Below, in pieces: positions 7,229 to 58,125 of a stretch of DNA of 64,000 nt. The stretch lies in the NCBI GenBank assembly GCA_964391805.1, contig CAYMNK010000004.1, positions 91,986 through 155,985 of the forward strand, given 5' to 3'. The position numbers and the translations under genes are program-made. Below the pieces are notes generated by a model that was not told the origin of the DNA, ran no database searches, and was given only the letters and a program-made list of their open reading frames with translations. The DNA is from an uncultured Christensenellaceae bacterium (GTDB lineage: Bacteria > Bacillota > Clostridia > Christensenellales > CAG-1252). How positions within the stretch are numbered: position 1 is the first letter of the stretch; each line of letters begins with the position of its first letter.

Positions 7229-7605
7229 CGTCCGCAAGATACCAAATTGTTGCACAATTTGATTCTCGCTACGCTCGAATTTCGACTTCGCTCAGTATGA
7301 CGGCGGACGAATTGTTCAATATGATGAGGACGGACGCAAACTCTTGTCTTTATGCGGATTTTAGATTCCGATGCTACGCATCGCCCTACGGGTTCGACTA
7401 CGTGTTTCACACTTCGCTCAGTATGACATTTGATGGTGCAGTGCTATTTAAAGTTTCGCTCAGTATGACATAATAGGCAAAAAAAGTTGGTACATAATAA
7501 AAAGCAAGTGCAATGACTTGCTTTTGGCGGGCGATTATTAATCGCCCCTACATTTTTGCAATATATTATTTACTTTTTTGTCAAAGAAATATGCATTATG
7601 ACATG
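7229..7605 (+). repeat. Mosaic intergenic repeat locus R1 (type-2 unit, type-1 unit, extra motif, double-hairpin module, tail module)
   Basis: Type-2 unit at 7229-7311 is closed by CGTCCGC/GCGGACG. Type-1 unit spans 7354-7440. CAGTATGAC occurs at 7293, 7419 and 7461. The double hairpin at 7499-7548 is shared with 37.78 and 58.0 kb. Confidence 0.85.
7494..7524 (-). terminator. Rho-independent terminator of the nth-obg-yhbY transcription unit, embedded in the repeat module
   Basis: Minus strand: AAAGCAAGT-CATTGC-ACTTGCTTT followed by TTATTAT. It lies about 110 nt downstream of the yhbY stop. Confidence 0.65.
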
Positions 7606-7632
7606 TTTTCTTTGCTTTGTTTTTATGTTCTA

Positions 7633-8130
7633 TTATTTCTTGCCGTATCTTTTACCGTTTTTGTACACGGTTACACCATTTTTCTTTTCTGGCGCATAGG
7701 CTTGTCTTGCTTTTTTCTTTGATAACTTACCACCTTCATTGGCAGATTTGCTGAAACGCTTATCAAAATGAGTTTTTATCTTCTTTTTAGGCTCCGCATT
7801 CTTGGGTTGAGCTTTTACTTCGGGCTTAGGATTACCGCTATAATCGATATGCTCGATACCTTCCTTATCGCTTCTTCTATAAATAATAAGTTTACTACCT
7901 ATTGCATGAATGGGCTCTGCAGATAATTTTTCACACAAAATATTGATGCACTCTTTTGCGGTAAAATCAGAGTTTCTTTGCACCCCTATTTTAATCAATT
8001 CGTGATCAAAAAGCATCTCGTCAATTTGGGCAATTACAGACTCTGTAATGCCGTATTTACCTATATAAACTGTCGGATTCAACTTATTAGCTAAAGCCAA
8101 CAAATTACTTCTTTCCTTACTATTCAACAT
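7633..8130 (-). CDS. yhbY: YhbY/CRM-domain RNA-binding protein with Lys-rich C-terminal extension
   Basis: N-terminal about 97 aa match the YhbY pattern (SKERSNLLALANKLNPTVYIGKYGITESV...). A strong AGGAGG lies upstream. Confidence 0.8.
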   Translation of the reverse strand: MLNSKERSNLLALANKLNPTVYIGKYGITESVIAQIDEMLFDHELIKIGVQRNSDFTAKECINILCEKLSAEPIHAIGSKLIIYRRSDKEGIEHIDYSGNPKPEVKAQPKNAEPKKKIKTHFDKRFSKSANEGGKLSKKKARQAYAPEKKNGVTVYKNGKRYGKK

Positions 8131-8149
8131 AATACTCCTCCTTAGTTCG

Positions 8150-9406
8150 TTAATCTAAAAATTCGAAGGCTATTTCGGCTATTCTTATCAAATCGCCGTC
8201 TTTTGCTCCACGTGCTCTCAATTCATCAAAGATACCGCGTTCTTTAAGTTTACGTTGGAAATACCTAAATGATTCGGGGTCCGATAGTACTACATTTCGA
8301 ACGAGCATATCGATAAAACCGCCGGTAACTTCAAACGATGCATCCGGGTATCTTACGATCTCGTAACTATCGTCGTCACGGTCATCATACTCCATAAATT
8401 CGGTTTCTGTCTCAACCGTATCGGGCAACGATACCACTATAGAAGATAATTGTTTGAGCAATTCTTCGATATTTTGGTGATAAGCTGCACAAAGCGGTAT
8501 AACCTTTTTACTAATGCTCTCTTCGAATAACTCTACACTGCCTTCCTCTGCAATATCAATCTTATTAGCGACGATTATTTCGGGTTTCTCGGCAAGTAAA
8601 GGACTATATGATTCTAATTCTTTCCTTATAGTGAAATAATCTTCAGTAGGATCTCTATCTTCAATACCGGATACATCGACTACGTGAACAAGCATCTTAA
8701 CTCTTTCGATATGGCGTAAAAAGTCGTGTCCTAAACCAACGCCCTCGCTCGCACCTTCTATAAGTCCGGGAATATCAGCTATTACGTAAGACTTTTCATA
8801 AAACTTGATAACGCCCAAATTCGGTGCCAATGTGGTGAAATGATAGTTAGCGATCTTAGGTCTTGCCTCGGTCAATACAGAAAGCAAGGTAGATTTACCA
8901 ACATTAGGAAATCCTACTAAACCTATATCTGCTATAGTTTTAAGCTCTAATACAACTTTATGCTCAATGGTCTTAAAACCGTCTTGTGCAAATGACGGTG
9001 ATCTTCTAGTAGGAGTCGCAAAGCAAGCATTTCCCTTACCGCCCCTACCGCCACGCTGTATAACCTTAGTCATTTTATCCTTATACATATCAGCAAGCAC
9101 ACCACCGGTAGCATCATCCTTAATAACGGTACCGACAGGAACTCTTATATATAGAGGTTCACCCGATTTACCTGTTTGATTATTAATTCCGCCGTTTTCG
9201 CCGTTTTGGGCACGATAATGCACCTTGAATTTAAAATCGATCAAGGTATTCATATTAGCGTCGGCAACAAATATAATGTCGCCACCGTTACCGCCGTTAC
9301 CGCCGTCGGGACCACCGCTTAGGTTGAATTTTTCTCTATGAAAATTCACCTTACCGTTACCGCCGTTACCGGCTTTAATATATATCTTAGCAATATCTAA
9401 AAACAT
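8150..9406 (-). CDS. obg: GTPase Obg/CgtA
   Basis: MFLDIAKIYIKAGNGGNG, the Gly-rich Obg fold, G-domain GFPNVGKST and a C-terminal OCT domain. Start placed at ATG 9406, which has a GAGGAG SD; the ORF-track start at 9472 would overlap nth. Confidence 0.9.
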   Translation of the reverse strand: MFLDIAKIYIKAGNGGNGKVNFHREKFNLSGGPDGGNGGNGGDIIFVADANMNTLIDFKFKVHYRAQNGENGGINNQTGKSGEPLYIRVPVGTVIKDDATGGVLADMYKDKMTKVIQRGGRGGKGNACFATPTRRSPSFAQDGFKTIEHKVVLELKTIADIGLVGFPNVGKSTLLSVLTEARPKIANYHFTTLAPNLGVIKFYEKSYVIADIPGLIEGASEGVGLGHDFLRHIERVKMLVHVVDVSGIEDRDPTEDYFTIRKELESYSPLLAEKPEIIVANKIDIAEEGSVELFEESISKKVIPLCAAYHQNIEELLKQLSSIVVSLPDTVETETEFMEYDDRDDDSYEIVRYPDASFEVTGGFIDMLVRNVVLSDPESFRYFQRKLKERGIFDELRARGAKDGDLIRIAEIAFEFLD

Positions 9407-9419
9407 AATTATCTCCTCG

Positions 9420-10064
9420 CTACTTATTCGAATTATGGTACTTACAAAGGGATTGTAAATTACACTCCACACATTGTGGATTGATGGCCTTACATCCGTA
9501 TCTACCCAAGAATATCAGTAAATGGTGCATTTCACGCCAATTACATTCGGGAATAACCTCATTAAGCTGTTTTTCGGTTTCTTCCGGCGTTTTAGCTTTC
9601 ACCAATCCTAACCTATTAGCGACTCTAAAAACATGGGTGTCTACCGCTATTGCATTACCGTTAAATGCTTCGGCATACACTACATTTGCAGTTTTACGAC
9701 CGACGCCGGCAAGCGACTGCAATGCATCTCTATCGGCAGGAACTTCTCCATTGAAGCGTTCAACCAATGCTTTACTGCACTCTATAATAGCCTTAGCTTT
9801 ATTATTGTAAAAACCGCAACTTCTAATGTAAGGAATCAATTCATCGACGTTAAGAGTCGCCATTTTAAACGGATCGTTACAAAAAGCAAAAAGCTTGGGC
9901 GTAACCATATTAACACGTTTATCGGTACATTGAGCAGACAAAATGACCGCTATCAACAACTCATAGGGCGTTAAATGGTCAAGTTCGCATTTTGCTTCGG
10001 GAAATCTTTCCCGCAACCGTTCCATTATTTCATTAACATCGAGATTCGCATCATTTGTACTCAT
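9420..10064 (-). CDS. nth: Endonuclease III
   Basis: HhH-GPD motifs (LAGVGRKTANVV) and a C-terminal 4-Cys cluster (CKAINPQCVECNLQSLC). Confidence 0.9.
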   Translation of the reverse strand: MSTNDANLDVNEIMERLRERFPEAKCELDHLTPYELLIAVILSAQCTDKRVNMVTPKLFAFCNDPFKMATLNVDELIPYIRSCGFYNNKAKAIIECSKALVERFNGEVPADRDALQSLAGVGRKTANVVYAEAFNGNAIAVDTHVFRVANRLGLVKAKTPEETEKQLNEVIPECNWREMHHLLIFLGRYGCKAINPQCVECNLQSLCKYHNSNK

Positions 10065-10150
10065 ACGCTAAAATTATATCATATTAATAAAATATTGTCC
10101 ACGTTTTTATTTTAATAATCGAACAATAATATCTATAAAAACCCGCATAT

Positions 10151-11266
10151 TTACGCTTTAAAGCGTTCAATTGCTCTCAAAAAAGCGTAAATATCGCCAA
10201 GTGTATTGTCAAAACCCAAACTCACCCTCACCAATCCGCTGTTGACGGTTCCGAGATATTTGTGCATTAATGGAGCACAATGAAGCCCTGCTCGCACCGC
10301 TATTCCGTTATAATTCAAATAGTCTGCAATTCGTTCCGAGTCCACTCCGTCAATAATAAATGCTACAATTCCCGATGCATTAGGCTTGGAATAAACACGA
10401 ACGCCGTTCATTCTTTTTAGTTCGGAAATAATAAATTCGGTATTATTCAAATTGCTTTCTGCCGTTATCTCGGTCCTTGGATCAACCCATTCGATAGCCT
10501 TTCCTAACGCAATAATTGCCGAAGCATTCAGTGTTCCGGACTCGAGGGCTTCGGGATAATTTTCGGGCTGAACAATGGATATACTCTCGGTTCCGGTACC
10601 GCCAAAAATAATTGGACGAAGTCGCATTCTCGTATTGAATACCAAAAATCCCGTACCTTGCAATCCATACAACCCCTTATGCCCGGACGAACATACAATA
10701 TCACAACCTAAACTGCCCATATCGATTCGTTTATGACCGGCTATTTGCGAAGCGTCTAAAATAGTTCTTATTCCGTTTTCGGCACAATATTTGCATATGT
10801 CCTCGTAATCGTTTTCGGTACCTGTAACGTTACTGCAAGCATTGAGTATCACCAATCTTGTTTCAAGTCTCAATGCACAGCGTATTCTATCAAGCGTAAC
10901 CCTTCCGCTTTTATCGGGACGGACATAAGAAACTTCGACTTTTTGTTTTCGTTCCAAATAGTTTAACGGACGTAAGACCGAATTATGTTCGGTAACCGTT
11001 GTAACGATATGACCACCCGAATATCCACCAAGTATTGCGATATTGAGCGCCTCGGTACAATTCTTAGTAAACACCGTTTCGCCGTCCAATAGTGAAAAAT
11101 AATTACAAATAATATCACGACAATGTTGGATTTTTAAGGCAGTTGCAATGCTATCATTATGTCCGCCTCTACCTGCATTACATTTATGCTTACATTCGGA
11201 AACGTAACATTTTAACACCTCTTTTGGCACATAACGAGAGGTTGCTGCATTATCTAAATATATCAT
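10151..11266 (-). CDS. Class V aminotransferase-fold PLP enzyme, cysteine desulfurase family
   Basis: YLDNAATS and SGHKGLYGLQGTG (PLP-Lys) motifs. An alternative upstream ATG at 11284 lacks an SD. Confidence 0.75.
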   Translation of the reverse strand: MIYLDNAATSRYVPKEVLKCYVSECKHKCNAGRGGHNDSIATALKIQHCRDIICNYFSLLDGETVFTKNCTEALNIAILGGYSGGHIVTTVTEHNSVLRPLNYLERKQKVEVSYVRPDKSGRVTLDRIRCALRLETRLVILNACSNVTGTENDYEDICKYCAENGIRTILDASQIAGHKRIDMGSLGCDIVCSSGHKGLYGLQGTGFLVFNTRMRLRPIIFGGTGTESISIVQPENYPEALESGTLNASAIIALGKAIEWVDPRTEITAESNLNNTEFIISELKRMNGVRVYSKPNASGIVAFIIDGVDSERIADYLNYNGIAVRAGLHCAPLMHKYLGTVNSGLVRVSLGFDNTLGDIYAFLRAIERFKA

Positions 11267-11348
11267 TTCTTCCTTAAACCTCATATAATACAGTATATTT
11301 TTGTTATCCGTTAGAGGTAACTAAAAAAAGACAAGCGAGGATATATAG

Positions 11349-11597
11349 ATGAATTATTTATTGATTGTTTTTGCAAGCAGAAGAGATGCCGTTTCTTTCG
11401 CCGAAAAACTGCAGTATAATAATGCACCGTTTGAAATAATAAATACCCCAAGACAGCTTAGTTTAAGTTGCGGAATTTCGGTAAAAACAAGCGAAAGAAG
11501 TATAAATACTGTGCGAAGAATCCTTAATTCATACCGTTTTTCTTCTTTTTCAGGTGTGTATATTTTTAAAAACTCTAATTATTATCTTTATCGGTAA
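11349..11597 (+). CDS. DUF3343-like small protein (putative S/Se carrier-associated)
   Basis: 82 aa with the pattern LIVFAS..DAV..EKLQ....FEIINTPRQLSLSCGISV, which resembles DUF3343. Divergent from the desulfurase gene. An SD is present. Confidence 0.5.
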   Translation: MNYLLIVFASRRDAVSFAEKLQYNNAPFEIINTPRQLSLSCGISVKTSERSINTVRRILNSYRFSSFSGVYIFKNSNYYLYR

Positions 11598-11600
11598 AAA

Positions 11601-11623
11601 GCGAACGCCAAAACGGCGTTCGC
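11601..11623. terminator. Bidirectional terminator hairpin between convergent genes
   Basis: GCGAACGCC-AAAAC-GGCGTTCGC, a 9-bp stem flanked by A/T runs. Confidence 0.6.
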
Positions 11624-11649
11624 TCTAAATGTTATTTTATTTTTATCGA

Positions 11650-12552
11650 TTATTTGAGGTCCTTTTTGTTATAACCGAGGATGTTGAGTATATTATTATC
11701 CTCACGCCAACCCGATTTGACCTTTACCCACAACTTTAGATATGTTTTTTGATCAAAAAGTTTTTCTATCTCAAGTCTTGCTGCGGTTGCAATACGCTTA
11801 AGCGTTTCTCCTCCCTTACCGATAATTATTGCCTTGTGATTGTCTCTTTCGGTAATAATATCCGCTTCAATACTAATAAGTCCGTCCTTTCTTTCGTCAA
11901 AAGACGTAATATCTATTCCTATACCGTGCGGAATTTCCTCTTGTAAGAATTTCAAAGCCTTTTCCCTAATAATCTCGGCTACTATAAATCTCATAGGTCT
12001 ATCGGTATACATATCTTCGGGATAGCATTCTTCGCCCTCGGGTAATACTTCGAGTATTTCATCTATTAGAGGTTCGAGATTCTTATGTTTTTCGGCACTT
12101 ATAGGAACTACCGATATCGATTCAATCGGGTTTAGCATCGATAGATTCTTAACAAAAACTTCCTCGTCGGCAATATCCATTTTATTGAGAACGACAATGA
12201 GTTTACTTGCTTGCTTTTTATAACTTTCAATATTAGCAAAATCCTCGTCGCTTATCTTCTTTTGACCATCTATAACGTATAAAATGACGTTTCCGTCTTT
12301 GGTGGCAGAAGAAATACTTTCGGACATATAATCGAAAAGTTTACCTTTACTATGGTTTATACCCGGCGTATCCGAGAATATCATTTGATATCTTTCGCCG
12401 TTTTTCTCGCCGTTGGCTATGCCGATTATCTTATTTCTCGTAGTTTGGGGACGCCACGAAACTATACTGACTTTCTCGCCGACAAGGGCATTGATTAGAG
12501 TAGATTTACCTGCATTCGGCTTACCTATTATTGAAATCGTACCTGTTTTCAT
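11650..12552 (-). CDS. era: GTPase Era
   Basis: GKPNAGKST G1 motif, DTPG, NKMD and a C-terminal KH domain. Its start overlaps the ybeY stop. Confidence 0.92.
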   Translation of the reverse strand: MKTGTISIIGKPNAGKSTLINALVGEKVSIVSWRPQTTRNKIIGIANGEKNGERYQMIFSDTPGINHSKGKLFDYMSESISSATKDGNVILYVIDGQKKISDEDFANIESYKKQASKLIVVLNKMDIADEEVFVKNLSMLNPIESISVVPISAEKHKNLEPLIDEILEVLPEGEECYPEDMYTDRPMRFIVAEIIREKALKFLQEEIPHGIGIDITSFDERKDGLISIEADIITERDNHKAIIIGKGGETLKRIATAARLEIEKLFDQKTYLKLWVKVKSGWREDNNILNILGYNKKDLK

Positions 12553-13016: not shown

Positions 13017-13019
13017 AAT

Positions 13020-14486: not shown

Positions 14487-14488
14487 TT

Positions 14489-16809: not shown

Positions 16810-16857
16810 ATTATAGCATATTCACACTTAACGGATTTATGATTACTATATGTCTAA

Positions 16858-16882: not shown

Positions 16883-16891
16883 AAATGATTT

Positions 16892-19929: not shown

Positions 19930-20397
19930 TTAAAAGTTTTCATCGATTTTTACGACTTCACTTAGTTCGTATTGATTGATAGCCTTTGCATCATTGTCAT
20001 ACTTACAAGTGATTCTCTGCTTATAGTACTTAGTATATACGATTACTGACCATTCTTGACTCTTTAACTTGGAACTTGTACTTAATATAATATGTATGGA
20101 ATCATCGCTACAAGATGTTACGTTTGTACCTGTGTTATCATCAATAACAAGATCAGGCATATCTTGTTTTAGAAGTGCCGTCAAACCATCTTTAGTCTCT
20201 TTATAATCGTCCAATGAAATATAATACTGAAGTTGAGTCTTCAAGCTGGAAGCTGCATCAGTAACGGGTGTTTTACGCGCATTGTTCAAAACAGCAATGG
20301 TAGCCACTGTAGCGGTACCAGCCAAAATCGCAAGAATTGCGATAACTACTACTAATTCAACGAGGGTGAAACCTCTTTTCTTTTTAAATATTCTCAT
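19930..20397 (-). CDS. Prepilin-type N-terminal cleavage/methylation-domain protein (type IV pilin / pseudopilin-like)
   Basis: MRIFKKKRGFTLVELVVVIAILAIL is the class III signal. Start placed at ATG 20397, which has GGAGG 5 nt upstream. Confidence 0.8.
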   Translation of the reverse strand: MRIFKKKRGFTLVELVVVIAILAILAGTATVATIAVLNNARKTPVTDAASSLKTQLQYYISLDDYKETKDGLTALLKQDMPDLVIDDNTGTNVTSCSDDSIHIILSTSSKLKSQEWSVIVYTKYYKQRITCKYDNDAKAINQYELSEVVKIDENF

Positions 20398-23424: not shown

Positions 23425-24450
23425 CTAAGCACAATAAATGAGTCGCTCGGTAACTTTGTCGTACAATGCAATTTTATCAAGATCGAGGTCCACTGAAGAC
23501 GAATCGACAGCAGAATAAAACTCGACTCCGTTAATCATAATCAAATGTATATTTCCGGTCGTGGTAGTCAAAGAATGAATGCTTTGAGCGGGTATTTCTC
23601 CATCTATCAATGCATCGGGTTTAAATCCCAATAAAACACTCTTTCCAATGTAACTTTCGGCTAAAGTTTCCTCTAATGATAACTCAAAATGGTGGTCAAG
23701 AAGTTCAAAACCGCTCTCTTTCAATAAGACTTCCACTTTATTGTAGAATGGAAAAAATAATTCCGCAGTTTGTAAACATTTGGGCTTTTTCAAAAATTCC
23801 GATGGTAATCCGCTCTCAAGATTGTAGCCATACGATAAAACAAGGGTAGAACGATTAAGCAATTCGACTTCTTCCGCATTATCGGTTGCGTATATAATAA
23901 TCGAATCGGTACAGAACATATATTTCGCGAGCAGTGCAAATGTTCTCCGTCTTTCGGACGGATTAAGACAAGCAAGAGGGTTATCGAGAACAATAACTTT
24001 GCTTTGACGATAAAAAGCTCTAATCAATGCACTTTTGACTCTATCTTCATTGGATAAACGAAAAACGGCATCATCGAGCAAATAACGAGAAACCCCGAAT
24101 TTATCAAGCCATTCATTGATAATATCATTGCGTTCTTCAATAGGGATTTTACGCAACTTCAACGGATAATGAAGGTTATATTTAAGACTTCTACGCTCAA
24201 AAAAAGCAAGATCGTCAAAAACCATATTAACAGATGTGTTTCTATCTAATAATATGTTTTCTTCATCAAGTGTAATCGAACCGTCGTGAACATAGTTGAT
24301 ACCGGCTATTGCTTTCAAAAGGCTTGTTTTACCCGAACCGACATTGCCAAAAACTACATTCACACCCTCAGTGAAAATATGTGTTATAGAATGCAAGCAA
24401 TCGGCATGTCCAAAATAGTTAAGTGTTACTTCGTTTATTTTTAGTTCCAT
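23425..24450 (-). CDS. Orphan MalK/UgpC-like ABC ATPase homologue with degenerate catalytic motifs
   Basis: Walker A GNVGSGKTS is intact. The signature reads LSNED, Walker B reads VIVLDNP and the H-loop region reads YATDN. No adjacent permease gene. Confidence 0.7.
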   Translation of the reverse strand: MELKINEVTLNYFGHADCLHSITHIFTEGVNVVFGNVGSGKTSLLKAIAGINYVHDGSITLDEENILLDRNTSVNMVFDDLAFFERRSLKYNLHYPLKLRKIPIEERNDIINEWLDKFGVSRYLLDDAVFRLSNEDRVKSALIRAFYRQSKVIVLDNPLACLNPSERRRTFALLAKYMFCTDSIIIYATDNAEEVELLNRSTLVLSYGYNLESGLPSEFLKKPKCLQTAELFFPFYNKVEVLLKESGFELLDHHFELSLEETLAESYIGKSVLLGFKPDALIDGEIPAQSIHSLTTTTGNIHLIMINGVEFYSAVDSSSVDLDLDKIALYDKVTERLIYCA

Positions 24451-24514
24451 AAAAATATTATATATTTTTGTATTATCAATGTCAAGAGCGTTAGAAAAAT
24501 AACGTTTTACAATA

Positions 24515-24680
24515 AAAAGTATGCATTATTATATAATTTTTTTTCTGCGGATTTTAGATACCGACGCTATGCGTCGCCCTTCGGGTTCGACTACAGGACG
24601 GTGTCCTTCCGCTAAGTATGACGGGACGGGAATCAGTATGACATGATTGGGCGCTGACGCTTGCCATGATTGCGATACTT
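24515..24680 (+). repeat. Mosaic intergenic repeat locus R2 (one complete type-1 unit)
   Basis: GATACC, H1 (CGACGC-TAT-GCGTCG), H2 (CCC-TTC-GGG), GTTCGACTAC, H3 (AGGAC-GGT-GTCCT), TCCGCTAAGTATGAC, ...CAGTATGACATGATTGGGCGCTGACGCTTGCC. Confidence 0.85.
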
Positions 24681-24694
24681 TTACAAATAAAGCG

Positions 24695-26267: not shown

Positions 26268-26770
26268 AAGTATGCACACAAACAAACTCTTTCTTGTAAG
26301 GATTTAGATTCCGACGCTATGCGTCGCCCTAACGGGTTCGACTACGGGTTGTCACCCTTCGCTCAGAATGACATTTGATGGAGTCCGCCGTCATACTGAG
26401 CGTAGCGTAAGCGGAGTCGAAATTCGAGTGTAACGAGAATCAAACGGCGAAGGCGTTTGGTATCTTGCGGACGATAAAGAATAGTCAATTGAACGACTTC
26501 CTTTTTTAATGTGGAATAAGATACCGACGCGTTGCGTCGCTGCTACGCAGTTCGACTTCAGGGCGATGCCCTTTCGCTCAGTATGACAGCGGACGAAATT
26601 GGCTCAGTATGACGGCGGATGAAACCGACTTAGTTAGATATATATTTATCCGCAATATTGCGAAGCAATACATCATTTGCCGTAAGGCAAACATCATTCA
26701 TCATTATGCGTAGCATAACATCATTTACAATGAAGGGACGGAACAGTATGACATTGATGGTATCTGCGTA
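26268..26770. repeat. Mosaic intergenic repeat locus R3 (two type-1 units, one inverted type-2 unit, mini-hairpin triplet)
   Basis: Type-1 units at 26299-26383 and 26511-26625. The type-2 unit at 26384-26473 is the reverse complement of 7229-7311. Three hairpin+ACATCATT units span 26657-26725. Confidence 0.85.
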
Positions 26771-31285: not shown

Positions 31286-31700
31286 GCGCTAACGCGAATG
31301 ATGTTATGCTTTGCATAATGATGTTACTTCGTAATGAGGTTTGCCTCTGGCAAATGAGGTTTTGCGTTGCAAAATTGTGGATGCAGATACCGACGAGTTG
31401 CATCGCCCTACGGGTTCGACTACAACATGACATGATATATGTCGATATCGTTCGCAAGATACCAAATTGTTGCACAATTTGATTCTCGTTACGCTCGAAT
31501 TTCGACTACGCTCAGTATGACGGCGAACGAAATTTGCTTGCCTTGAGGTGTATTTAGATTCCGACGCTATGCGTCGCCCTATCGGGTTCGACTACGGGTT
31601 GTCACCCTTCGCTCAGTATGACTATATTGGGCGCTATCGCTTACCTTGATATGGATAAGGCATCTACTAAACGCCCTCATGATGTAATATATTATTTCTT
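31286..31700. repeat. Mosaic intergenic repeat locus R4 (5 mini-hairpins, truncated type-1, type-2, type-1 unit)
   Basis: Hairpins with AATGATGT/ATGAGGT linkers span 31286-31373. The type-2 unit at about 31450-31525 is closed by CGTTCGC/GCGAACG. The type-1 unit at 31545-31650 has a core identical to 26299-26370. Confidence 0.85.
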
Positions 31701-35982: not shown

Positions 35983-37230
35983 TCAAATTCCCTCTATCGT
36001 AATTGTTCTCTCGGTTTCTGATAAATAGTCGATGTTCACGGTAATGACCTTGGCTCCGTAGTATTCTTGAGCGACAGTCCATTCAATAAGGCATACACTA
36101 TCCGCTAAACCATAATACTCCTCGAATCCGTAATCGATGTCACTTCCCGACGGTAACCTGTACATATCGAAATGATACATTTTAAGTCTACCCGATTCGT
36201 AACTATTCATTAAAGTAAACGTAGGACTTGTAATAGTTTCGCTAATACCCAAACCAAGTGCTATTCCCTTAGAAAAAGTAGTTTTACCCGCACCCAATTC
36301 GCCGTTCAAAAGAATAACCTCTCCGCCCGATAGCCGAGATGCCAATTTGACGCCTAAATTCATAGTTTGTTCTTGAGTACAAGTTACGTATTCCATAGTA
36401 GAATTATACAACGACTCGTCGTTTTTGGCAATAATATTTGAGTTATTTACGTTGTCCTGTGTATTATTGCCCTTCTTTTGGGCGTTAAATCGCTTATTTG
36501 TCGCTTTAATCAACTTAGATAACGGCTTGTATACAAGAAATACCGCTACAGATAATAAAACAGTTTTTATAAGATTAAATAATACCGCCCAATACCATAC
36601 GTCTAAATAAAACGCCATACCGTCAAGCCAAGGTGTATCCATATATACGCCAAGATAGAACGGAAAAGTCAACAAATAATTGATAGGCACCGAAAATGCC
36701 GTTTGAGCAATGACAGCACAAACAAGCATAATGATTACAGCCTTGATTCCCTTATGTTTTTTATAGGCAAACGAAGGAATCAATACATAAGGAAGCATTA
36801 ATAAAATATTGGCAAGTTCGCCCACTCCTACTGTTTGAGAAAAGGTCAAAGCGTGCAATAATTCTTTTAAAACTCCGACTATTATAGCCGACAACGGTCC
36901 CATGGTAAGTCCCGAAATCAATACAAAAACATTGGAAAAGTCAATTTTTAGAAATGGAACAGCAGGAAAAATGGGAAATTCAAATGTAGGTAAATAAAGA
37001 ATATATGCTATTGCCGTAAACAATGCCATATAGGTCAATCTTAACGGTGTAAAATACTTGGTTCTTATAACTTTTTCGTCCGTTTTCTCTTCGATTAAAA
37101 TAGGCTTATCAAAGTCGTTTGGCTCAATCGATTCATTGTTTTGAGAAGCTAACGAAGATTGCATTTGAACATTAGTACCGCTTGTTACATCATTAACAAC
37201 AGTGCTTTCGATATCTTGAATTTGGTCCAT
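35983..37230 (-). CDS. Single ORF fusing a RibU-type ECF S-component (riboflavin transporter) with TsaE
   Basis: Residues about 60-240 are RibU-like (FLKIDFSNV, 5-6 TM helices). The last 137 aa, from an in-frame Met at 36396, are TsaE (LNGELGAGKTTFSKG, SPTF, FDMYR). No stop codon lies between them. Confidence 0.75.
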   Translation of the reverse strand: MDQIQDIESTVVNDVTSGTNVQMQSSLASQNNESIEPNDFDKPILIEEKTDEKVIRTKYFTPLRLTYMALFTAIAYILYLPTFEFPIFPAVPFLKIDFSNVFVLISGLTMGPLSAIIVGVLKELLHALTFSQTVGVGELANILLMLPYVLIPSFAYKKHKGIKAVIIMLVCAVIAQTAFSVPINYLLTFPFYLGVYMDTPWLDGMAFYLDVWYWAVLFNLIKTVLLSVAVFLVYKPLSKLIKATNKRFNAQKKGNNTQDNVNNSNIIAKNDESLYNSTMEYVTCTQEQTMNLGVKLASRLSGGEVILLNGELGAGKTTFSKGIALGLGISETITSPTFTLMNSYESGRLKMYHFDMYRLPSGSDIDYGFEEYYGLADSVCLIEWTVAQEYYGAKVITVNIDYLSETERTITIEGI

Positions 37231-37293: not shown

Positions 37294-37310
37294 ACAAACT
37301 AAAGTAGTTT

Positions 37311-37425
37311 CATTCTTTTCTCATCCGGACTGTTACCGTAGGTACGGGAATTTCACCCGTTCGGGACCGAAGTCTTCGTGGACTATACCACCTGTGGGGA
37401 TTTACACCCCGCCCCAAAGAATAAC
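37311..37425 (-). promoter_or_regulatory. FMN riboswitch (RFN element) aptamer
   Basis: Minus strand: UUCUUUGGGGCGGGGUGUAAAUCCCCACAGGUGGUA...GGGUGAAAUUCCCGUACCUACGGUAACAGUCCGGAUGAGAAAAGAAU. This matches the conserved RFN core. P1 is UUCUUU/AAAGAA. It lies upstream of a RibU-like gene. Confidence 0.9.
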
Positions 37426-37496
37426 TTTATTAATTGAAGTATATCACTAAATATATTTGGTGTCAATAATTAGTGAAGTATTTATTGACTTTTCAT

Positions 37497-38090
37497 TCTT
37501 TAATGGATTTTTGATTCCGATGCCATTGGCATCGCTACTACGCAGTTCGAATACAGACTTCGTCTCACTCAGTATGACATGATTGAACGCTGACGCTTGC
37601 CTTAATATGGATTGTAGATACCGATGCCGATGGTATCGCTGCTACGCAGTTCGACTCCGCTTGCGCTACGCTCAGTATGACGGGACGGAAATTAGTATGA
37701 CGCTCAGTATGACATGATTGAACGATTGCGCTTGCTTTTATGTGGATAATTGATAGATTGTTGACAAAAATAAATCCAAAATAAAAAGCAAGTGCGATGA
37801 CTTGCTTTGGCGGGCGATTACTAATCACTCTTGTTTTTATAATATATTATTAGCGTTTTTTGTAAAATTCTATGTGCTACTTTTGCTTTTTTTACACGGA
37901 ATCAGATACCGATGCCGATGGCATCGCTGCTTCGCAGTTCGACTTCGGGCTTCACCCTTCGCTCAGAATGACAAGATGGCGGGCGATTACTAATCGCTCC
38001 TATTTTTTTGTAATATAATGTCGTATCTTTGTAATATATTATTGTATTTTCTGTAAATTTTATATGCTTTTTATGCTTTTAAATTTAGCA
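37497..38090 (+). repeat. Mosaic intergenic repeat locus R5 (three type-1 units, double-hairpin modules, tail modules)
   Basis: Type-1 cores start at about 37511, 37617 and 37903. CAGTATGAC occurs at 37570, 37673 and 37705. Double hairpin at 37783-37830. GGCGGGCGATTACTAATCGC recurs at 37977. Confidence 0.85.
37783..37808 (-). terminator. Terminator hairpin (repeat-borne) downstream of scpB
   Basis: Minus strand: AAAGCAAGT-CATCGC-ACTTGCTTT followed by TTATTTT. Confidence 0.55.
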
Positions 38091-38102
38091 TTCATTGAAG
38101 AC

Positions 38103-42544: not shown

Positions 42545-42900
42545 GACAAGAATGCAAGCTGTGCTTACGCAATATGTGTCTAACGACACACGATATAGCT
42601 TCGCTACGATATGTGCCTTTGGGCACGCGATATGTTGCTTCGCAAAAGTTGCGGATAAGGATTTTAGATTCCGACACTTTGTGTCGCCCTACGGGTTCGA
42701 CTACAGACTTCGTCTTTCGCTCAGAATGACATTTGATGGTGCACGTTATCGTCCGCAAAATATAAAACTGACTTTTAGTTACCGTCCAAGATACTGCTCG
42801 GCTCTGCCTCGCACTGCTTAGGCAGTTCGACTACAGACTTCGTCTTCCGCTCAGTATGACGGGACGGGAACAAGTATGACGGCGGACGGACGCTGACACG
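42545..42900 (+). repeat. Mosaic intergenic repeat locus R6 (5 mini-hairpins with CGATATG linkers, two type-1 units)
   Basis: Mini-hairpins span 42556-42644. Type-1 cores start at about 42665 and 42790, both with H3 = AGAC-TTC-GTCT. CAGTATGAC at 42852. Confidence 0.85.
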
Positions 42901-49742: not shown

Positions 49743-49755
49743 ATATATCTCCCGA

Positions 49756-51655: not shown

Positions 51656-51782
51656 AATCTACTCCGTAAAATGTATTTTTTACTTATATTTATTATATAT
51701 TATAACACTTATATAAAAAAAATTCAATTACTGTTTGACAGAATAATTGAATTTTTTATAGTTTATTCGTTTTTTTATCTCG

Positions 51783-52277: not shown

Positions 52278-52311
52278 TTTTTACCCCCTTTTATTTCGCT
52301 TTATTGTTTTT

Positions 52312-52740: not shown

Positions 52741-53179
52741 AGACTTCCACTATATCCTCGCTTACGGATAGCATTTCGGATACAACCCTCTTGACCGTAT
52801 CCGCATTATCTATCTCGCTTATTCGGACAGAAACGCTTGTAATACTATTTATATTTCCGTCCGAAATCGTTAGAACCACTTTTTCCGTCTTTATTCCTCG
52901 ATTGTCGAGTTCTTTTGCTATTCTCGACTCGAGAGCGGTTACTTCTCTATCGCTAACCTCGGAAATAAAATCGGTATCTATCGCTATCTCATCGCCCCCA
53001 ATTATGTCCGATATATTAAAATCTGCATTTTTTAATTTGATTATCGGTGTAACAAGTGTAAGAATTACAAGCAACGAGAAAATACCTTTGATATATTTAT
53101 TCGTTTGCCCCGACGGCAACAAAACATCTGCTAACACCGACAAAAGTACGACTCCAACCAATCCTAATAACCAATTCAT
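52733..53179 (-). CDS. spoIIIAF: Stage III sporulation protein AF
   Basis: Two N-terminal TM helices; position within the cluster. Confidence 0.7.
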   Translation of the reverse strand: MNWLLGLVGVVLLSVLADVLLPSGQTNKYIKGIFSLLVILTLVTPIIKLKNADFNISDIIGGDEIAIDTDFISEVSDREVTALESRIAKELDNRGIKTEKVVLTISDGNINSITSVSVRISEIDNADTVKRVVSEMLSVSEDIVEVYE

Positions 53180-54342
53180 ACCGAATTCAATGTAAATAAC
53201 AACATGGATATCGACAGTACGAATACGAATCCTACCCCCAATACCGCACCTAACAACTGCCTAACGCTTTCTGAAACATTGTTGATAAAACTCGAAAGTT
53301 TTTTATCAGTTATCGGTTCTATAATGCCTGCTGTAAGTTTAAGCCCGACTGTAAGGGCAAACAATTTGATAGCAGGCGACAATACTATCAAAACTACGGC
53401 GATTATACCCGATACTCCTACGGCATTTTTTACTATAACCATACCTACCCTCACTAAATCCACACCCTGAGAAAGATATCCACCTATTACGGGTACATAG
53501 GACGATACGAGATACTTTGTTGCCTTAATAGATGCCGAATCCACAGTACCTCCTATAAGCCCGGATAAGGACAAATATGCTATAAGTCCGCCAAAGGTCA
53601 AACTCATTACTCCGCTTCCTATGTACCGCGATGCCGACTGAAGTTTGTCAAGTTTGACATTGTCCGAAATACTGCCGACTATAGAAAATACAACAGTTGC
53701 GATAAATAATGGCAATACTACTATCGTCATAATGTTACCCACTACCGACGCTACCACCGCAAGTCCCGGATTGAATAGTCCCGTGCTTACCCCTCCGCCT
53801 ACTGCGGTAAGAAGGGTTATTAAAGGGGGATAGACTGCATTGACTACTCCGCTAAGGATTTCTATCGTCCGCTTGATGTCCTTAACCAATCCTGCAACCA
53901 TCGCAACTACCGTCGTGATTATGGCTGAATAACACACAAAATAAACTATGTCTACCGTTTGCTTCCTTAAAAAGTTTTGAGTTAAACCAAAAATGATACT
54001 GAATAGCACCGCTATAACTATTATTCCAATCAGCGTCGGTATCACCTCGGTTATGCCTCCTGCAAGATATGATAATAGTGCATCGATAATAGTACGTGGC
54101 GTTAACGAAATCTCTCCTTCGGTAAGGTCCTTAATAAACTCCTTAATTCCACCGCTGTTATAGAACAGTTCCAAGTCTTTTACATACTTTTCAAACTCTT
54201 CTAAATCAAGGTCTTCTATAGTTTTATCGACTTCCTCGTTAAGTTGGGCTTGTCCGTCGGTTTCTTCGGCAAAACATATGGTCGTCGGACAAACAAGTAT
54301 GCAAGCAAAAACAATAACCAAAACTATCATGCTCTTTTTCAT
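53176..54342 (-). CDS. spoIIIAE: Stage III sporulation protein AE
   Basis: 388-aa polytopic protein with a signal peptide; position within the cluster. Confidence 0.8.
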   Translation of the reverse strand: MKKSMIVLVIVFACILVCPTTICFAEETDGQAQLNEEVDKTIEDLDLEEFEKYVKDLELFYNSGGIKEFIKDLTEGEISLTPRTIIDALLSYLAGGITEVIPTLIGIIVIAVLFSIIFGLTQNFLRKQTVDIVYFVCYSAIITTVVAMVAGLVKDIKRTIEILSGVVNAVYPPLITLLTAVGGGVSTGLFNPGLAVVASVVGNIMTIVVLPLFIATVVFSIVGSISDNVKLDKLQSASRYIGSGVMSLTFGGLIAYLSLSGLIGGTVDSASIKATKYLVSSYVPVIGGYLSQGVDLVRVGMVIVKNAVGVSGIIAVVLIVLSPAIKLFALTVGLKLTAGIIEPITDKKLSSFINNVSESVRQLLGAVLGVGFVFVLSISMLLFTLNSV

Positions 54343-54722
54343 ACTAATTCCCCTATCGCCTCGATAAGCCCTCGTATTATCGGCAATGACATCAAAAATA
54401 TGGTCAGCTTACCGCCTAACTGTATCTTATTGCCCACTGATGACGCTCCGTAATCCTCGCATATGCTTGCTCCGTATTCGGTGAGGTACCCGATGCCTAT
54501 TATCTTCAACACGCCACCGAATAGACTTGTATCCAATCCGCTTCCCGCAATAAGCGTATCGAAGGCGGTTATCGCTTCGGTCATAGAGGACAAAACCAAT
54601 ACCAATAAAATCATCCCCGTTGCTAACGTAATTATCAGCGAAAACTCGGGATTGTTCCTTTTGAGTAAGCTCGATATGATCACACCGACTATGCCTATAC
54701 CGACTATCTTGACTATTTCCAT
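54339..54722 (-). CDS. spoIIIAD: Stage III sporulation protein AD
   Basis: 127-aa, 4-TM protein following spoIIIAC. Confidence 0.8.
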   Translation of the reverse strand: MEIVKIVGIGIVGVIISSLLKRNNPEFSLIITLATGMILLVLVLSSMTEAITAFDTLIAGSGLDTSLFGGVLKIIGIGYLTEYGASICEDYGASSVGNKIQLGGKLTIFLMSLPIIRGLIEAIGELV

Positions 54723-54723
54723 A

Positions 54724-54921
54724 TCAGTACAGTTCGAATATGGATCGAATATTGTCGAACAATCCTGCTATCATATCTAATACAATAGCAAGCGCTATAA
54801 CCAAAGATGCCAACGTTACTATGGTTGCTATTTCGTCCTTATCGCTCTTTTTTAAAATGAGGTTGACCATTGCGGTCAATATCCCCAATCCTGCTAATTT
54901 GAATAATACACTTATGTCCAT
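54724..54921 (-). CDS. spoIIIAC: Stage III sporulation protein AC
   Basis: 65-aa, 2-TM protein resembling B. subtilis SpoIIIAC (..FKLAGLGILTA..). Confidence 0.8.
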   Translation of the reverse strand: MDISVLFKLAGLGILTAMVNLILKKSDKDEIATIVTLASLVIALAIVLDMIAGLFDNIRSIFELY

Positions 54922-54922
54922 A

Positions 54923-55372
54923 CTATATAATCAATATTACTATAGCTATTCCGCCCAATATGCAGAGTTTCATTATCATTCCGCCCTTGTTTTTGACGTC
55001 CGTTTCACAGCCCATAACCACTTCATCAATCCGTAATCTTTCACGTGAAATTGTATCTATGGTCGCTTGATAATCAGATGCTCCGAACTTGTCGAAAAAA
55101 TCTTTGATATCGTTCCCCTCGTTGTTACCAATATAGCGAGGTAAAACGGAATCGTTAAGATATTTATTAAAGTCCGCACCTAATGATGAAGAAATTCTTT
55201 GATTTATATCATTCTTGCTCCCCTTAACACTTCGTACTGTTTCAAAAGCAAGCAGTAAATATTTTTGATAATCCTTATAAAAAGCGAGCCGTTGCTTCTT
55301 ACGTTTATTGATAAAGATGCCTATAAAACACACCGAGCAAAAGGCTATTGCAGATGTAATTGCTTTAACCAT
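54923..55372 (-). CDS. spoIIIAB: Stage III sporulation protein AB
   Basis: N- and C-terminal TM helices; position after spoIIIAA. Confidence 0.75.
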   Translation of the reverse strand: MVKAITSAIAFCSVCFIGIFINKRKKQRLAFYKDYQKYLLLAFETVRSVKGSKNDINQRISSSLGADFNKYLNDSVLPRYIGNNEGNDIKDFFDKFGASDYQATIDTISRERLRIDEVVMGCETDVKNKGGMIMKLCILGGIAIVILII

Positions 55373-56147
55373 ATCGCACCTCTTGAATACTTCCTAAGGA
55401 TGGATACCTACTCAACAATACCTTGATTTCAAAGTTCGAACATTGCGCGGGCAAGTTGTCTAAGTCGCTACCGTGAACAGACGATACTATATTTATACCG
55501 CTCCGATATATGCGCTCGCTGACTTTATATTCGTCTTCTCCGAATAATTCATCGGTCACCACTGTTTCGGGGGATAGACTTCTAATAATTCCTTCGTATA
55601 ATGAATCCTTAGATATGCCGGAAAGAACTAAACTATTGCCCAAATCAAGCACTCCCATACCGCACAATTCATGTCTTTCATCTACAACTACTGTCTGGCG
55701 AATATGCGAAATGCGCCTCGCAAGATCCCTCAAAAAGGTGGTTTTTCCAGCATAAGGCTTACTCACAACCAAAATATTGCGATTCAAATACTTGTCGGGA
55801 ATAACAGAGGAACATCCGATTATCTCATGCGGGATTCTAATCACGAGTCCCTGCAAATGCTTTATTACCTTATGACCGCTACCGTTAACAACATAATCAC
55901 CCGCAAGACCTATCCTAACACCGCCTTTATATGTTAGATACCCCTCTTGAGCATATTCTCCAACCGCATACACCGAATCATCGGTTACAAGCCTTAGAAC
56001 ATCTTTCAACAAATCATCGGTCACAATTTTATCGATTACAATCGACCGATTGGCCAACTTATACATAATGTGCCTACCGAGAATAAGCACTATTTCATTG
56101 GCGGATAAAGGAATATCGGGGGATAAAAGCTCAAGCAGTCTATTCAT
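55365..56147 (-). CDS. spoIIIAA: Stage III sporulation protein AA (ATPase)
   Basis: Walker A KPYAGKTTFLRDLAR and Walker B-like VVVDE. First gene of the cluster. Confidence 0.85.
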   Translation of the reverse strand: MNRLLELLSPDIPLSANEIVLILGRHIMYKLANRSIVIDKIVTDDLLKDVLRLVTDDSVYAVGEYAQEGYLTYKGGVRIGLAGDYVVNGSGHKVIKHLQGLVIRIPHEIIGCSSVIPDKYLNRNILVVSKPYAGKTTFLRDLARRISHIRQTVVVDERHELCGMGVLDLGNSLVLSGISKDSLYEGIIRSLSPETVVTDELFGEDEYKVSERIYRSGINIVSSVHGSDLDNLPAQCSNFEIKVLLSRYPSLGSIQEVRYG

Positions 56148-56280
56148 ATTCTTATTGTATGCTTGTACATCTCAATAATGAATGTACCGACTTAATTAGA
56201 GTAAATGCGACGATTTTCCGCATTTAAAAAAGTGGGATTATTTACTATGTGGAATTATGTTTAATCGCACGACGACGAGC

Positions 56281-56330
56281 GATTTCTCAATATGACGGGA
56301 TCAGCATGACAATAAACGGAAGTATGTATA
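56281..56330 (+). repeat. Degenerate relic of the mosaic repeat tail
   Basis: TTCTCAATATGACGGGATCAGCATGACAATAAACGG, compared with CGCTCAGTATGACGGGACGGGAATCAGTATGACATGATTG at 24.6 kb. Confidence 0.45.
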
Positions 56331-56362
56331 ACATAACAAACAATTGCTCTTTTTGAGTAGAA

Positions 56363-56397
56363 AAAAGTATGCACTTCAACTGTGACATACTTTTTTT
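56363..56397. terminator. Bidirectional terminator hairpin downstream of the islet gene
   Basis: AAAAAAGTATG-13 nt-CATACTTTTTTT. Confidence 0.55.
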
Positions 56398-56558
56398 ATT
56401 AAACTATAGAGAATATAAAAATTAATGACATAGAATTAGTCAGTATAATCAAGACAACTTTAAATTACTGTGCCTTTTTATGGGATAACCAAATGTAATC
56501 ATATATAGAATGTAGTTTTGACATATCTTCTACAAATTATTTTGTACGCAACAAAATA

Positions 56559-57443
56559 CTAAATATAGACCTGATGGCCATTATTAATTTCAACTAAAGA
56601 ACTAATCGAGTCACATTCTATTAATTGTACTAATACTGGCAATGAACCACTTTTCGATGATCTCACTACTGACATATATCCAATTATTGAAATACCGTTT
56701 TGTTCAAGATAATTAATTATCGAGTCAATCTCTATGTGATAATCGGCAAACAATTCAGTATCTAAAAGTTTTTCAACTACGAGTTTATGCTTTTGTAAAT
56801 AACTAAGTTTTTCTGTGATTTTATTTTGATACCCGGCTTCTGTATCAAGCATCTCCGTATATTCACTTGCTACATTTATGAAAATACATGGCGAATCTTC
56901 TGATAGTCCTGTCTTAATAGCAAAAGAATAAGTAAGCAATATTTCGTTCCACTTTGATATATAGTCATTTATCTCGCTCAACACTAAGTTATGTTTTAAT
57001 GAAAATAATAGATTTCCATTATCGAACTCACCTTCACCATATAAATTGGTGGCCTCTTCTAACGATTCAGCAGATGTTTGGTTACAGACAAAAGTTTTGT
57101 TAGTAGTATATAAACCATCTAAACCGTTTTGAACAAATCGCCTATTATTATCTATAATACTTTTTTTTCTTTGAAAAACTTTAATACTCTTGGACACATA
57201 TTCAATATTCACAAATTGAGTTACATTTCCTACTATTGTTGTTTTATCTGATAGTTTATCAATCTCAACTAATTCGTTCTTAACTAAATAGTATTCATAA
57301 TCGTAACGCCCAAATCCAATATATTTCGATTTACGAAAATATACTTGAGAACCGCGACCAAACAGCTCAATTAAATATGTAAAGCAAGTTTCAACAGTAT
57401 TTTTATATGTATCATCCTTAAACGGATTAAGAACGATATGCAT
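56559..57443 (-). CDS. Hypothetical protein in an AT-rich islet; the ORF appears N-terminally truncated by a homopolymer frameshift
   Basis: 294-aa ORF with no recognised family. The upstream same-frame codons encode KKRIIRLIATSVISICILICIISST (a signal anchor). They are cut off from GGAGG+ATG at 57526 by an A7 run. Confidence 0.6.
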   Translation of the reverse strand: MHIVLNPFKDDTYKNTVETCFTYLIELFGRGSQVYFRKSKYIGFGRYDYEYYLVKNELVEIDKLSDKTTIVGNVTQFVNIEYVSKSIKVFQRKKSIIDNNRRFVQNGLDGLYTTNKTFVCNQTSAESLEEATNLYGEGEFDNGNLLFSLKHNLVLSEINDYISKWNEILLTYSFAIKTGLSEDSPCIFINVASEYTEMLDTEAGYQNKITEKLSYLQKHKLVVEKLLDTELFADYHIEIDSIINYLEQNGISIIGYMSVVRSSKSGSLPVLVQLIECDSISSLVEINNGHQVYI

Positions 57444-57839
57444 AGTGCTACTTATTATGCATATTAAAATACAGATACTTATTACGCTTGTCGCAATTAA
57501 TCGAATAATTCGCTTTTTTTAGCCATAATTATCCTCCATCAATAAACTATTTACTACTCAATGGTTATTTTAATATTTCCCTCCACCGTGCTCTTATAAA
57601 ACCTCACAGCAATCTTATATTTCTTTCCATTCAGTAAATTAATCCTATCCTTATAGTTTCCCTTAAATAAAAATCGTTTTTACTACTCTCGTTAATATTA
57701 TACCACATAATAAAAGAATTCTCACTACACGTTTTATACATTTCTAAAATCTTAAATAAAGTTTAATATTACATTTTAATAATAAAATGAGATTATTTAC
57801 GATGCTCAATTATGTATAAAAGAAAGAAAGTTTAGTATG

Positions 57840-58125
57840 ATGCTGATAAGACGCTGACGCTTACTTTGATTAAGGATTAAGATACCGACGCATTGCGTCG
57901 CCCTATCGGGTTCGACTTCGCTTACGCTCAGTATGACATGATTAGACGCTAATGCTTACATTGATATGGATGATTGATAGACTGATGACAAGTTTAATGC
58001 AAAATAAAAAGCAAGTGCGAGGACTTGTTTTGGCGGGAGATTACTAATCTCCCCTACACATTTGTTATATATTGTTATCGTCGCTTGTGAAAGGTTATGC
58101 ATTATGACATGCTTTTTTTATGCGG
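57840..58125 (+). repeat. Mosaic intergenic repeat locus R8 (single near-full-length composite copy)
   Basis: Tail fragment, type-1 core (57885-57937), tail, double hairpin (57998-58050), then a tail module ending in TATGCATTATGACATG. Confidence 0.85.

Follow-up and report, generated by a model that had tools for sequence, protein, structure and literature searches.

Co-oriented repeats between the genes of a Christensenellaceae contig

The window analysed here is a 64,000-nucleotide stretch of contig CAYMNK010000004.1 (positions 91,986 to 155,985) from an uncultured Christensenellaceae bacterium, a spore-forming gut member of the Clostridia that encodes SpoIVB and SpoIIIAA, and we describe a 9-mer, CAGTATGAC, that recurs between its genes. 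About 95% of the coding length lies on the minus strand, in line with a preliminary description that placed nearly all genes there. The GC skew of the plus strand is negative across the whole window, so the minus strand carries the leading-strand sequence and serves as the lagging-strand template. The exact 9-mer occurs 16 times versus 0.24 expected from shuffled sequence, and none of 100 shuffles reached 16. Fifteen copies are intergenic: 14 on the plus strand (7293, 7419, 7461, 24634, 26579, 26605, 26744, 31513, 31614, 37570, 37673, 37705, 42852 and 57929) and one on the minus strand (26390). The preliminary description had listed exactly these 15 against a chance expectation below 1, and our recount reproduced every position. 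Chance could account for the sixteenth copy, at 462 on the minus strand within the infC open reading frame (ORF; 138-773). One-mismatch variants number 18 versus about 8 expected, 13 on the plus and 5 on the minus strand. The earlier statement that all of them are on the plus strand holds for the intergenic ones (11 of 11) but not for the five minus-strand variants, all of which lie within ORFs at about chance level (for example, AAGTATGAC at 19996 and CATTATGAC at 53726). The exact copies are clustered in 8 intergenic regions, and the plus strand has the majority in every one (two-sided p ~0.008 with regions as independent units). As had been proposed, the motif is the mark of repeat elements that share one orientation and run antisense to the minus-strand genes on either side.

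A repeat unit of about 75 nucleotides, here called the A element, has the 9-mer as its 3' end and the order AG-[AT..]-hairpin1-hairpin2-GTTCGACT-hairpin3-TTCGCTCAG-[..AT]-GAC and the more detailed consensus GGAT..AGATWCC-hairpin1-hairpin2-GTTCGACTnC-hairpin3-TYCGCTCAGWATGAC. Its complementary strand reads YGTC-AT...AT-CT, that is, an unpaired TGTC or CGTC tag and then a stem whose opening pairs are A-T. The window holds 13 A elements, all on the plus strand, together with three C variants (two plus, one minus) that are closed by an outer stem, CGTCCGC/GCGGACG, and five orphan 9-mers. The inverted C variant carries the sole intergenic minus-strand 9-mer and forms the window's only head-to-head pair (26364/26390). 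Bit scores below are from cmsearch with a covariance model built from ten window copies; elements without a score were delimited from the sequence or, for two C variants, as a repeat family.

7228-7311, plus: C variant, outer stem CGTCCGC/GCGGACG, 9-mer at 7293 (repeat family D15; DNA fold -16 kcal/mol, z = -2.5)
7356-7430, plus: A element with three hairpins, ending in CAGTATGAC at 7419 (93.9 bits)
7453-7469, plus: orphan 3' end, TTTCGCTCAGTATGAC alone
24549-24625, plus: A element, 3' end AAGTATGAC (83.6 bits)
26299-26375, plus: A element, 3' end CAGAATGAC, head-to-head with the inverted C element at 26385-26478 (95.7 bits)
26385-26478, minus: inverted C variant, 9-mer at 26390 (28.7 bits)
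26512-26590, plus: A element, 9-mer at 26579 (83.4 bits)
31378-31434, plus: truncated A element, hairpins 1-2 and GTTCGACT only (32.8 bits)
31448-31531, plus: C variant, 95% identical to 7228-7311, 9-mer at 31513 (repeat family D15)
31549-31625, plus: A element, 9-mer at 31614, 97% identical to 26302-26372 (repeat family D3; 94.7 bits)
37505-37581, plus: A element, 9-mer at 37570 (74.4 bits)
37609-37684, plus: A element, 9-mer at 37673 (68.3 bits)
37897-37975, plus: A element, CAGAATGAC, with hairpin 2 and a T-run directly after (79.8 bits)
42659-42733, plus: A element, CAGAATGAC (91.4 bits)
42749-42890, plus: nested pair (47 bits, and sequence), with an outer degenerate element closed by CGTCCGC/GCGGACG
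42782-42863, plus: inner A-type element of the nested pair, closed by CCGTCC/GGGACGG, 9-mer at 42852
57873-57940, plus: A element without hairpin 3, 9-mer at 57929 (75.7 bits)
63750-63831, plus: A element, TGC..GCA subtype, CATTATGAC (59 bits)
Ends at 24642, 26613, 26752 and 37713, plus: further orphan 3' ends

A recurrent pattern, GTATGAC-GGGACGG-RAAY-nAGTATGAC, is found at 24612-24642, 37673-37713, 42852-42880 and 26579-26613, and consists of a right stem arm and a second orphan 3' end straight after a complete element. Nesting accounts for this pattern at 42749-42890; at the other sites the left partner is missing.

Mosaic modules and terminators

In gene-poor gaps, mostly behind the 3' ends of genes, the A and C units join a linker (B), a double-hairpin module (D) and an AT box to form mosaics. 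One composite, of about 270 nucleotides, recurs at 7.3-7.6, 37.6-37.9 and 57.9-58.1 kb (73% column identity). Linker B is on the plus strand in 6 of 6 copies, with 0 expected by chance, and so is the AT box in all 7 of its intergenic copies; the copies of module D also agree in orientation (hairpin 1, 3 of 3; hairpin 2, 6 of 6).

37576-37620, plus: linker B module GACATGATTGAACGCTGACGCTTGCCTTAATATGGAT (repeat family D1); other copies start at 24640, 31620, 37711, 57935 and 63826, all plus
7500-7525, minus: module D hairpin 1, predicted intrinsic terminator after yhbY, -10.3 kcal/mol, then UUUUUAUUAU; called by the terminator scan
37785-37808, minus: module D hairpin 1, predicted terminator after scpB, -9.5 kcal/mol, then UUUUUAUUUU; called by the terminator scan
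58009-58030, minus: module D hairpin 1, degenerate with an A·C mismatch, -3.2 kcal/mol (z = +0.19), -8.9 on the plus strand
7529-7547, plus: module D hairpin 2, GGGCGATTAnTAATCGCCC with a T-run, terminator-like (hairpin 2 copies, -11 to -14 kcal/mol)
26213, 37813, 37982, 58036 and 63865, same orientation: other hairpin 2 copies, with one compensatory stem change
38029-38043, plus: AT box TTGTAATATATTATT, after hairpin 2; copies at 7556, 26240, 31682, 37837, 58062 and 63890, all plus

A further conserved box, TATGCATTATGACATG(T/C)TTTT, lies between the minus-strand gene's stop codon and the AT box at 7588-7610 and 58094-58116, and explains the one-mismatch matches of type CATTATGAC at 7594 and 58100.

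The preliminary description had assigned minus-strand intrinsic terminators to the double hairpins downstream of yhbY, scpB and a 551-aa ORF. The double hairpins do sit after these genes, with hairpins about 105, 295 and 100 nucleotides past the stop codons (at 7.5, 37.8 and 58.0 kb, respectively), and the first two are predicted terminators with a U-run; the third, at -3.2 kcal/mol, is not called on the minus strand by the terminator scan. Hairpin 1 is thus a predicted terminator on the minus strand at two sites, while hairpin 2 with its T-run is terminator-like on the plus strand at 7529-7547 and 37981-37999, making module D bidirectional, and it is a module separate from the 9-mer repeat. 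The suggestion that the 9-mer elements themselves are terminator cassettes has to be abandoned, since the elements bearing CAGTATGAC have no U-run in either orientation and several (7228-7470, 37505-37684 and 57873-57940) lie beyond predicted terminators, between the terminator and the next promoter (in one case the riboswitch promoter described below). These copies (7.2-7.5, 37.5-37.7 and 57.9 kb) are probably untranscribed; those at 24.5 kb and 37.9 kb are within likely 3' untranslated regions (3' UTRs) or read-through regions.

The gene for an ABC ATPase (23425-24450) has a perfect TTGACA-17-TATAAT promoter at 24451-24500 on the minus strand, just downstream of the 24.5-kb repeats, so that the repeats fill the space from one gene's stop to the next gene's promoter. 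On the same strand, a flavin mononucleotide (FMN) riboswitch (37309-37425; 102 bits) is preceded by a near-consensus promoter (37466-37438, TTGACA-17-TATACT) and followed by a 415-aa ORF (35983-37230) with an ECF-transporter S-component region and a C-terminal TsaE domain, after which come TsaB-like and acetyltransferase genes. We also considered the ATGACA of the repeat as a -35 box and rejected it, given the wrong spacing to any -10-like hexamer; promoter-like matches occur at background frequency.

Covariation of the stems

The genome of the window lies outside the species-representative genome set that was scanned, and the related loci come from other metagenome-assembled genomes (MAGs). 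Several uncultured Clostridia MAGs (Christensenellaceae, Eubacteriales, Clostridia) carry the motif, and shorter forms occur in MAGs of Pedobacter, Bacteroidales, Acidobacteriaceae and Patescibacteria. The covariance model from the ten window copies matched 145 copies in all, across the window and 54 loci of other genomes. In these copies the 12 modelled pairs of the three hairpins are Watson-Crick or wobble in 97.9% of cases versus 75.9% in shuffles; 341 cells are altered on both sides, none of 500 shuffles is as high, and sliding the 3' partners abolishes the signal. G·T or T·G occupies 18 of 1438 cells and A·C or C·A 13. That G·T is no commoner than A·C points to hairpins acting at the level of DNA, not RNA.

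The closing helix, AG-[AT xyz]...[z'y'x' AT]-GAC in the full unit AG-[AT xyz]-hairpin1-hairpin2-GTTCGACTnC-hairpin3-TTCGCTC-[z'y'x' AT]-GAC, covaries between subfamilies, AAG with CTT in 9 of 12, GAA with TTC in 3 of 3 and GGA with TCC in 2 of 2. From the window alone, AGATWC/GWAT as a covarying pair (6 of 10 by eye) is unsupported, and it holds only across subfamilies. A search of the window with Rfam 15 returned only the FMN riboswitch and tRNAs above the gathering threshold, and at E <= 10 nothing credible appeared in the repeat regions of the window or of a Pedobacter locus.

Orientation in related genomes

The preliminary description had called for a map of element orientation against genes and skew. 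So mapped in 8-kb fragments of other MAGs, with intergenic regions as units, orientation is non-random: the AGAT..ATGAC strand is the C-rich strand in 41 regions and the G-rich strand in 10 (p = 1.5e-5), and with |skew| of at least 0.05 the counts are 32 versus 3. Exact 9-mers in other MAGs lie on the C-rich strand in 122 cases versus 39. Orientation follows skew by 12:3 in convergent and 4:0 in divergent gaps (together 16:3), where the flanking transcription has no polarity. The bias is more general than the window alone could show.

Because the coding strand has the larger effect on skew, raw 8-kb GC skew was dropped as an independent proxy for replication and replaced by a coding-corrected estimator. 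Corrected skew gives the right orientation for 41 of 51 regions, the majority direction of the genes for 34 of 51. In regions on which the two differ, skew is correct by 12:5, or by 8:2 for strong signals. Skew therefore appears the better predictor, which is suggestive and not conclusive.

Proposed strand-specific spread and its alternatives

We propose, with a probability of about 0.5, that CAGTATGAC is the conserved 3' end of a noncoding, nonautonomous repeat family of the repetitive extragenic palindromic (REP) or bacterial interspersed mosaic element (BIME) type, whose members spread strand-specifically on the lagging-strand template. The hairpins of the element would be recognised in single-stranded DNA (ssDNA), and copying or insertion would be strand-specific and coupled to replication, by analogy with IS608 and ISDra2 and with what is proposed for REPs and their REP-associated tyrosine transposases (RAYTs). 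For IS608 and ISDra2, the lagging-strand template is the site of both excision and insertion (PMC6006769, PMC3333891). The tag-first strand (5'-YGTCAT...) would then end up on the G-rich lagging-strand template, giving head-to-tail, co-oriented arrays that seem antisense to co-directional genes, with module D supplying terminators incidentally. We lean to propagation through ssDNA because orientation follows skew in convergent and divergent gaps, because skew prevails in the discordant cases and because there is no G·U excess.

Several points weigh against this proposal. Gene direction and replication direction are largely collinear. The coding effect on skew in the 8-kb loci (~0.085) exceeds the replication effect (~0.044), which makes raw local skew partly a proxy for gene direction. 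Discordant regions are few, and regions of the same locus are not independent. Fold z-scores of single elements are modest (-1 to -2). A tblastn search for a Y1/HUH transposase gave no significant match in the window and 54 loci, a weak test that used an IS200 TnpA query. Among the relatives no pair of empty and filled sites was recovered that would define a target site, a footprint or an exact boundary. Finally, tandem duplication of composite units yields part of the co-orientation within gaps.

The main rival is selection linked to transcription, which we consider rather unlikely. It holds that elements insert either way and that survival is limited to copies with the tag end toward the 3' end of the gene upstream, either because 3'-UTR hairpins shield mRNA from 3' exonucleases or because the opposite orientation harms read-through transcripts, so that the bias would follow gene direction. 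Consistent with it, the tag-side gene points to the element in 58 of 72 cases, tandem gaps hold 13 antisense versus 5 sense regions, and some copies (24549-24684, 37897-37975) follow a stop codon but precede the first terminator or promoter. Convergent gaps are enriched (15 of 37 versus a background of 48 of 262) and divergent gaps scarce, as in REPs (PMC3733652) and pneumococcal repeats (PMC3049150). In a 91.6% relative (L068), where the repeat content after yhbY has been replaced, an A element is again antisense to yhbY. However, A elements carry no U-run, several copies past predicted terminators on both sides are probably untranscribed, G·U is in excess on neither strand, gene majority predicts orientation less well than corrected skew, and skew is still followed in gaps whose flanking genes supply no direction. 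Of the two explanations first offered for the bias, strand-specific insertion and selection, the evidence (12:5 and 16:3) leans to the former, and selection keeps a lesser weight.

Historical contingency offers a second alternative, an improbable one: a few composite blocks would have duplicated, or moved from gap to gap of one replichore through recombination and gene conversion, and co-orientation would reflect block ancestry together with the cost of inverted repeats, which cause inversions, with no strand-specific mechanism. The composites common to three gaps, tandem 276-bp composite units in one related locus (L003), the single orientation of modules A, B, D and the AT box, and the reshuffling of the mosaic between strains all speak for block copying. 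Against this, dozens of separate gaps, on many contigs and in several different MAGs, show an identical polarity with respect to skew, single A units occur in differing module contexts, and compensated diversification of the stems needs selection on the hairpins themselves. Given the recurrence across contigs and genomes, block duplication explains only some of the co-orientation within gaps. A third alternative, a family of small structured plus-strand RNAs, each a four-way junction whose joining strands are conserved, which would have their 3' ends at the hairpin 2 terminator and act in antisense or in trans, fits the joints GTTCGACT and TTCGCTCAG that are conserved while stems covary, the A element followed by hairpin 2 and a T-run on the plus strand at 37897-38010 and 63750-63890, and the degenerate 58.0-kb hairpin 1 that pairs only on the plus strand, through G·U, but is very improbable given the lack of an Rfam match even at E <= 10, of a convincing plus-strand promoter (best 9 of 12 matches, at background frequency) and of enrichment of G·U over A·C, and given a copy number, truncations, nesting and orphan ends that are typical of repeat DNA.

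Recent copying and turnover, in keeping with the main proposal, are indicated by copies 5-24 kb apart in the window that are 95-97% identical, by the tandem 276-bp units of L003 and by differences between strains. Logan sample SRR10277277 contains the window's organism at 100% identity, with short-read contigs that end within the repeats. In a contig from this sample that is 98.5% identical (L069), the mosaic is reshuffled and another gene lies upstream. Comparing its positions 1-2400 with window positions 37440-38102, a dUTPase gene replaces scpB upstream of the riboswitch operon, and the mosaic is re-assorted, with linker B absent and other pieces present. The difference could reflect rearrangement between strains at the repeats, or else a chimeric assembly. 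In a related locus with inverted copies (L045), a weak Y1 match between them proved noncoding, and the ORFs between inverted copies there and in L016 are spurious.

Tandem arrays of mini-hairpins are also found in the window (31286-31380, plus; 26638-26725, inverted; 42550-42650; 2590-2640), in L068 (690-790) and in L069 (1545-1630). Their units of about 20 nucleotides share a conserved 5-8 nt spacer (TGAKG, GATAT or GTGAAGT) and have 4-6 bp stems that vary from unit to unit. The arrays mostly adjoin an A element, with a variable orientation relative to it, unlike the other modules.

Comparison with known mobile repeats

Elements of the IS200/IS605 family (IS608, ISDra2) have asymmetric ends, subterminal hairpins instead of terminal inverted repeats and one active strand. 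Their excision and insertion at the lagging-strand template make orientation depend on the replichore (PMC6006769). Members insert on the 3' side of a set tetra- or pentanucleotide, do not duplicate the target and have different hairpins at their left and right ends. The polarity of the A element fits this use of strands, the tag-first strand being G-rich in 41 of 51 regions, with skew in the 8-kb fragments confounded by the coding strand. Unlike in that family, tnpA or tnpB was not found in the window and 54 loci (a weak test), and here we could distinguish neither a left from a right end nor a target tetranucleotide or ssDNA circle junction.

The REP/BIME-RAYT (TnpA-REP) system of E. coli and REPINs resemble the present elements as mosaics of palindromic units and linkers with an unpaired tetranucleotide at the hairpin foot (PMC3333891, PMC3116915). 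Tandem amplification of composites, location after gene 3' ends and a proposed processing of lagging-strand ssDNA are shared as well. The E. coli tag is GTAG, whereas here it is TGTC or CGTC; the basic E. coli unit is a doublet in inverted arrangement, for which net polarity would not be expected; and it comes with a single-copy Y1 gene flanked by REPs, of which none was found here, again in a weak test. Pneumococcal BOX, RUP and SPRITE are likewise Firmicute intergenic repeats (Croucher et al. 2011, PMC3049150). BOX is modular, and SPRITE, much like module D, is a repeat similar to a Rho-independent terminator, with an excess of copies downstream of convergent gene ends (PMC3049150). They differ in an orientation bias of ~61-63% that mirrors the coding bias (PMC3049150) and in terminal inverted repeats linked to insertion sequences, and have no sequence similarity to the window element.

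Relation to CGTC-tagged REPs

The tag places the element near the CGTC-tagged REP superfamily (Di Nocera, De Gregorio & Rocco 2013), which includes Neisseria dRS3 and Rickettsia RPE-4/6 (PMC3733652). These REPs have an unpaired CGTC (or TGTC/CCTC) tag, an 8-9 bp stem that starts with two A-T pairs, a 4-5 nt loop and a 3-nt CCA tail in a unit of 20-40 bp; they form mainly head-to-head dimers, with negligible head-to-tail ones, and have no known transposase (PMC3733652). Of 106 copies scored here, 99 have A after ...ATGAC, 5 have G and 2 have T, giving a TGTC or CGTC tag in 104 of them, and 13 of the 14 plus-strand window copies fit as well. The stem opening AG-AT...AT-GAC is invariant, and the next three pairs covary between subfamilies. 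Stems are complementary and heterogeneous in both groups, no transposase is known for either, and both are intergenic, mostly between tandem and convergent genes and seldom between divergent ones.

The rest of the anatomy differs. The closing helix of the window element is 4-5 bp and its interior ~55-65 nt; it encloses three hairpins and two conserved joints of 8-9 nt (~70 nt). The tag strand ends in CT(A/T)AA or CTCATCC, with CCA only on the classical copies of one Patescibacteria contig (L049). Adjacent copies are head-to-tail in 43 of 49 pairs, head-to-head in 3 and tail-to-tail in 3; the strand bias is strong, and the host belongs to the Clostridia, a class absent from the text of PMC3733652. 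With the tag and stem opening shared and the stem, loop, tail and dimer arrangement not, we treat the element as an enlarged, asymmetric variant and not a standard CGTC REP.

Related forms are seen in MAGs of Clostridia, Bacteroidota, Acidobacteriota and Patescibacteria. The minimal ones read AGATAC-GTTCGACT-hairpin-TTCGCTCAGTATGAC, and in L049 and a Pedobacter locus (L001) these adjoin short repeats of the forms CGTC-ATTCCCGA..TCGGGAAT-CCA and CGTC-ATTTC...GAAAT-CT; in both loci the full elements have classical CGTC REPs and intermediate forms as neighbours. Scanned viral contigs gave 0 matches and scanned metagenomes 7 short, uninformative loci, and searches of the full-text literature for the motif strings returned only unrelated primers. 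We tentatively suggest that the family is an enlarged CGTC-tag branch that lacks inverted-dimer symmetry, whose polarity may reveal 5'-YGTCAT on the lagging-strand template as the active strand and might imply a replication-coupled ssDNA enzyme that mobilises CGTC repeats across phyla.

No transposase is associated with CGTC REPs, and most REP families are symmetric inverted pairs that hide any strand preference. An asymmetric, abundant family that is ~80-90% co-oriented with replication and gene direction predicts an active strand and a switch of orientation at ori and ter, and offers defined ssDNA substrates for finding the enzyme. In practice, the mosaics break short-read assemblies of Christensenellales-like gut bacteria, and their terminator-like hairpins can confuse the annotation of operon ends.

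Two of the related loci merit description. The 5.8-kb contig L049 carries two A elements of full architecture (585-658 and 2909-2981; 58-60 bits) that are sense to the local ORFs, yet on the C-rich strand; they reflect either cross-phylum spread or a mis-binned contig. In L001 (3400-4260), three tandem 294-bp units lie between two minus-strand genes, each unit consisting of a head-to-head pair of unlike CGTC-type repeats (AGATAC..GTATGACG facing CGTCATTTCGAC..GAAATCT) and a third repeat, GATTGCTTCGTACCTCGCAATGACG.

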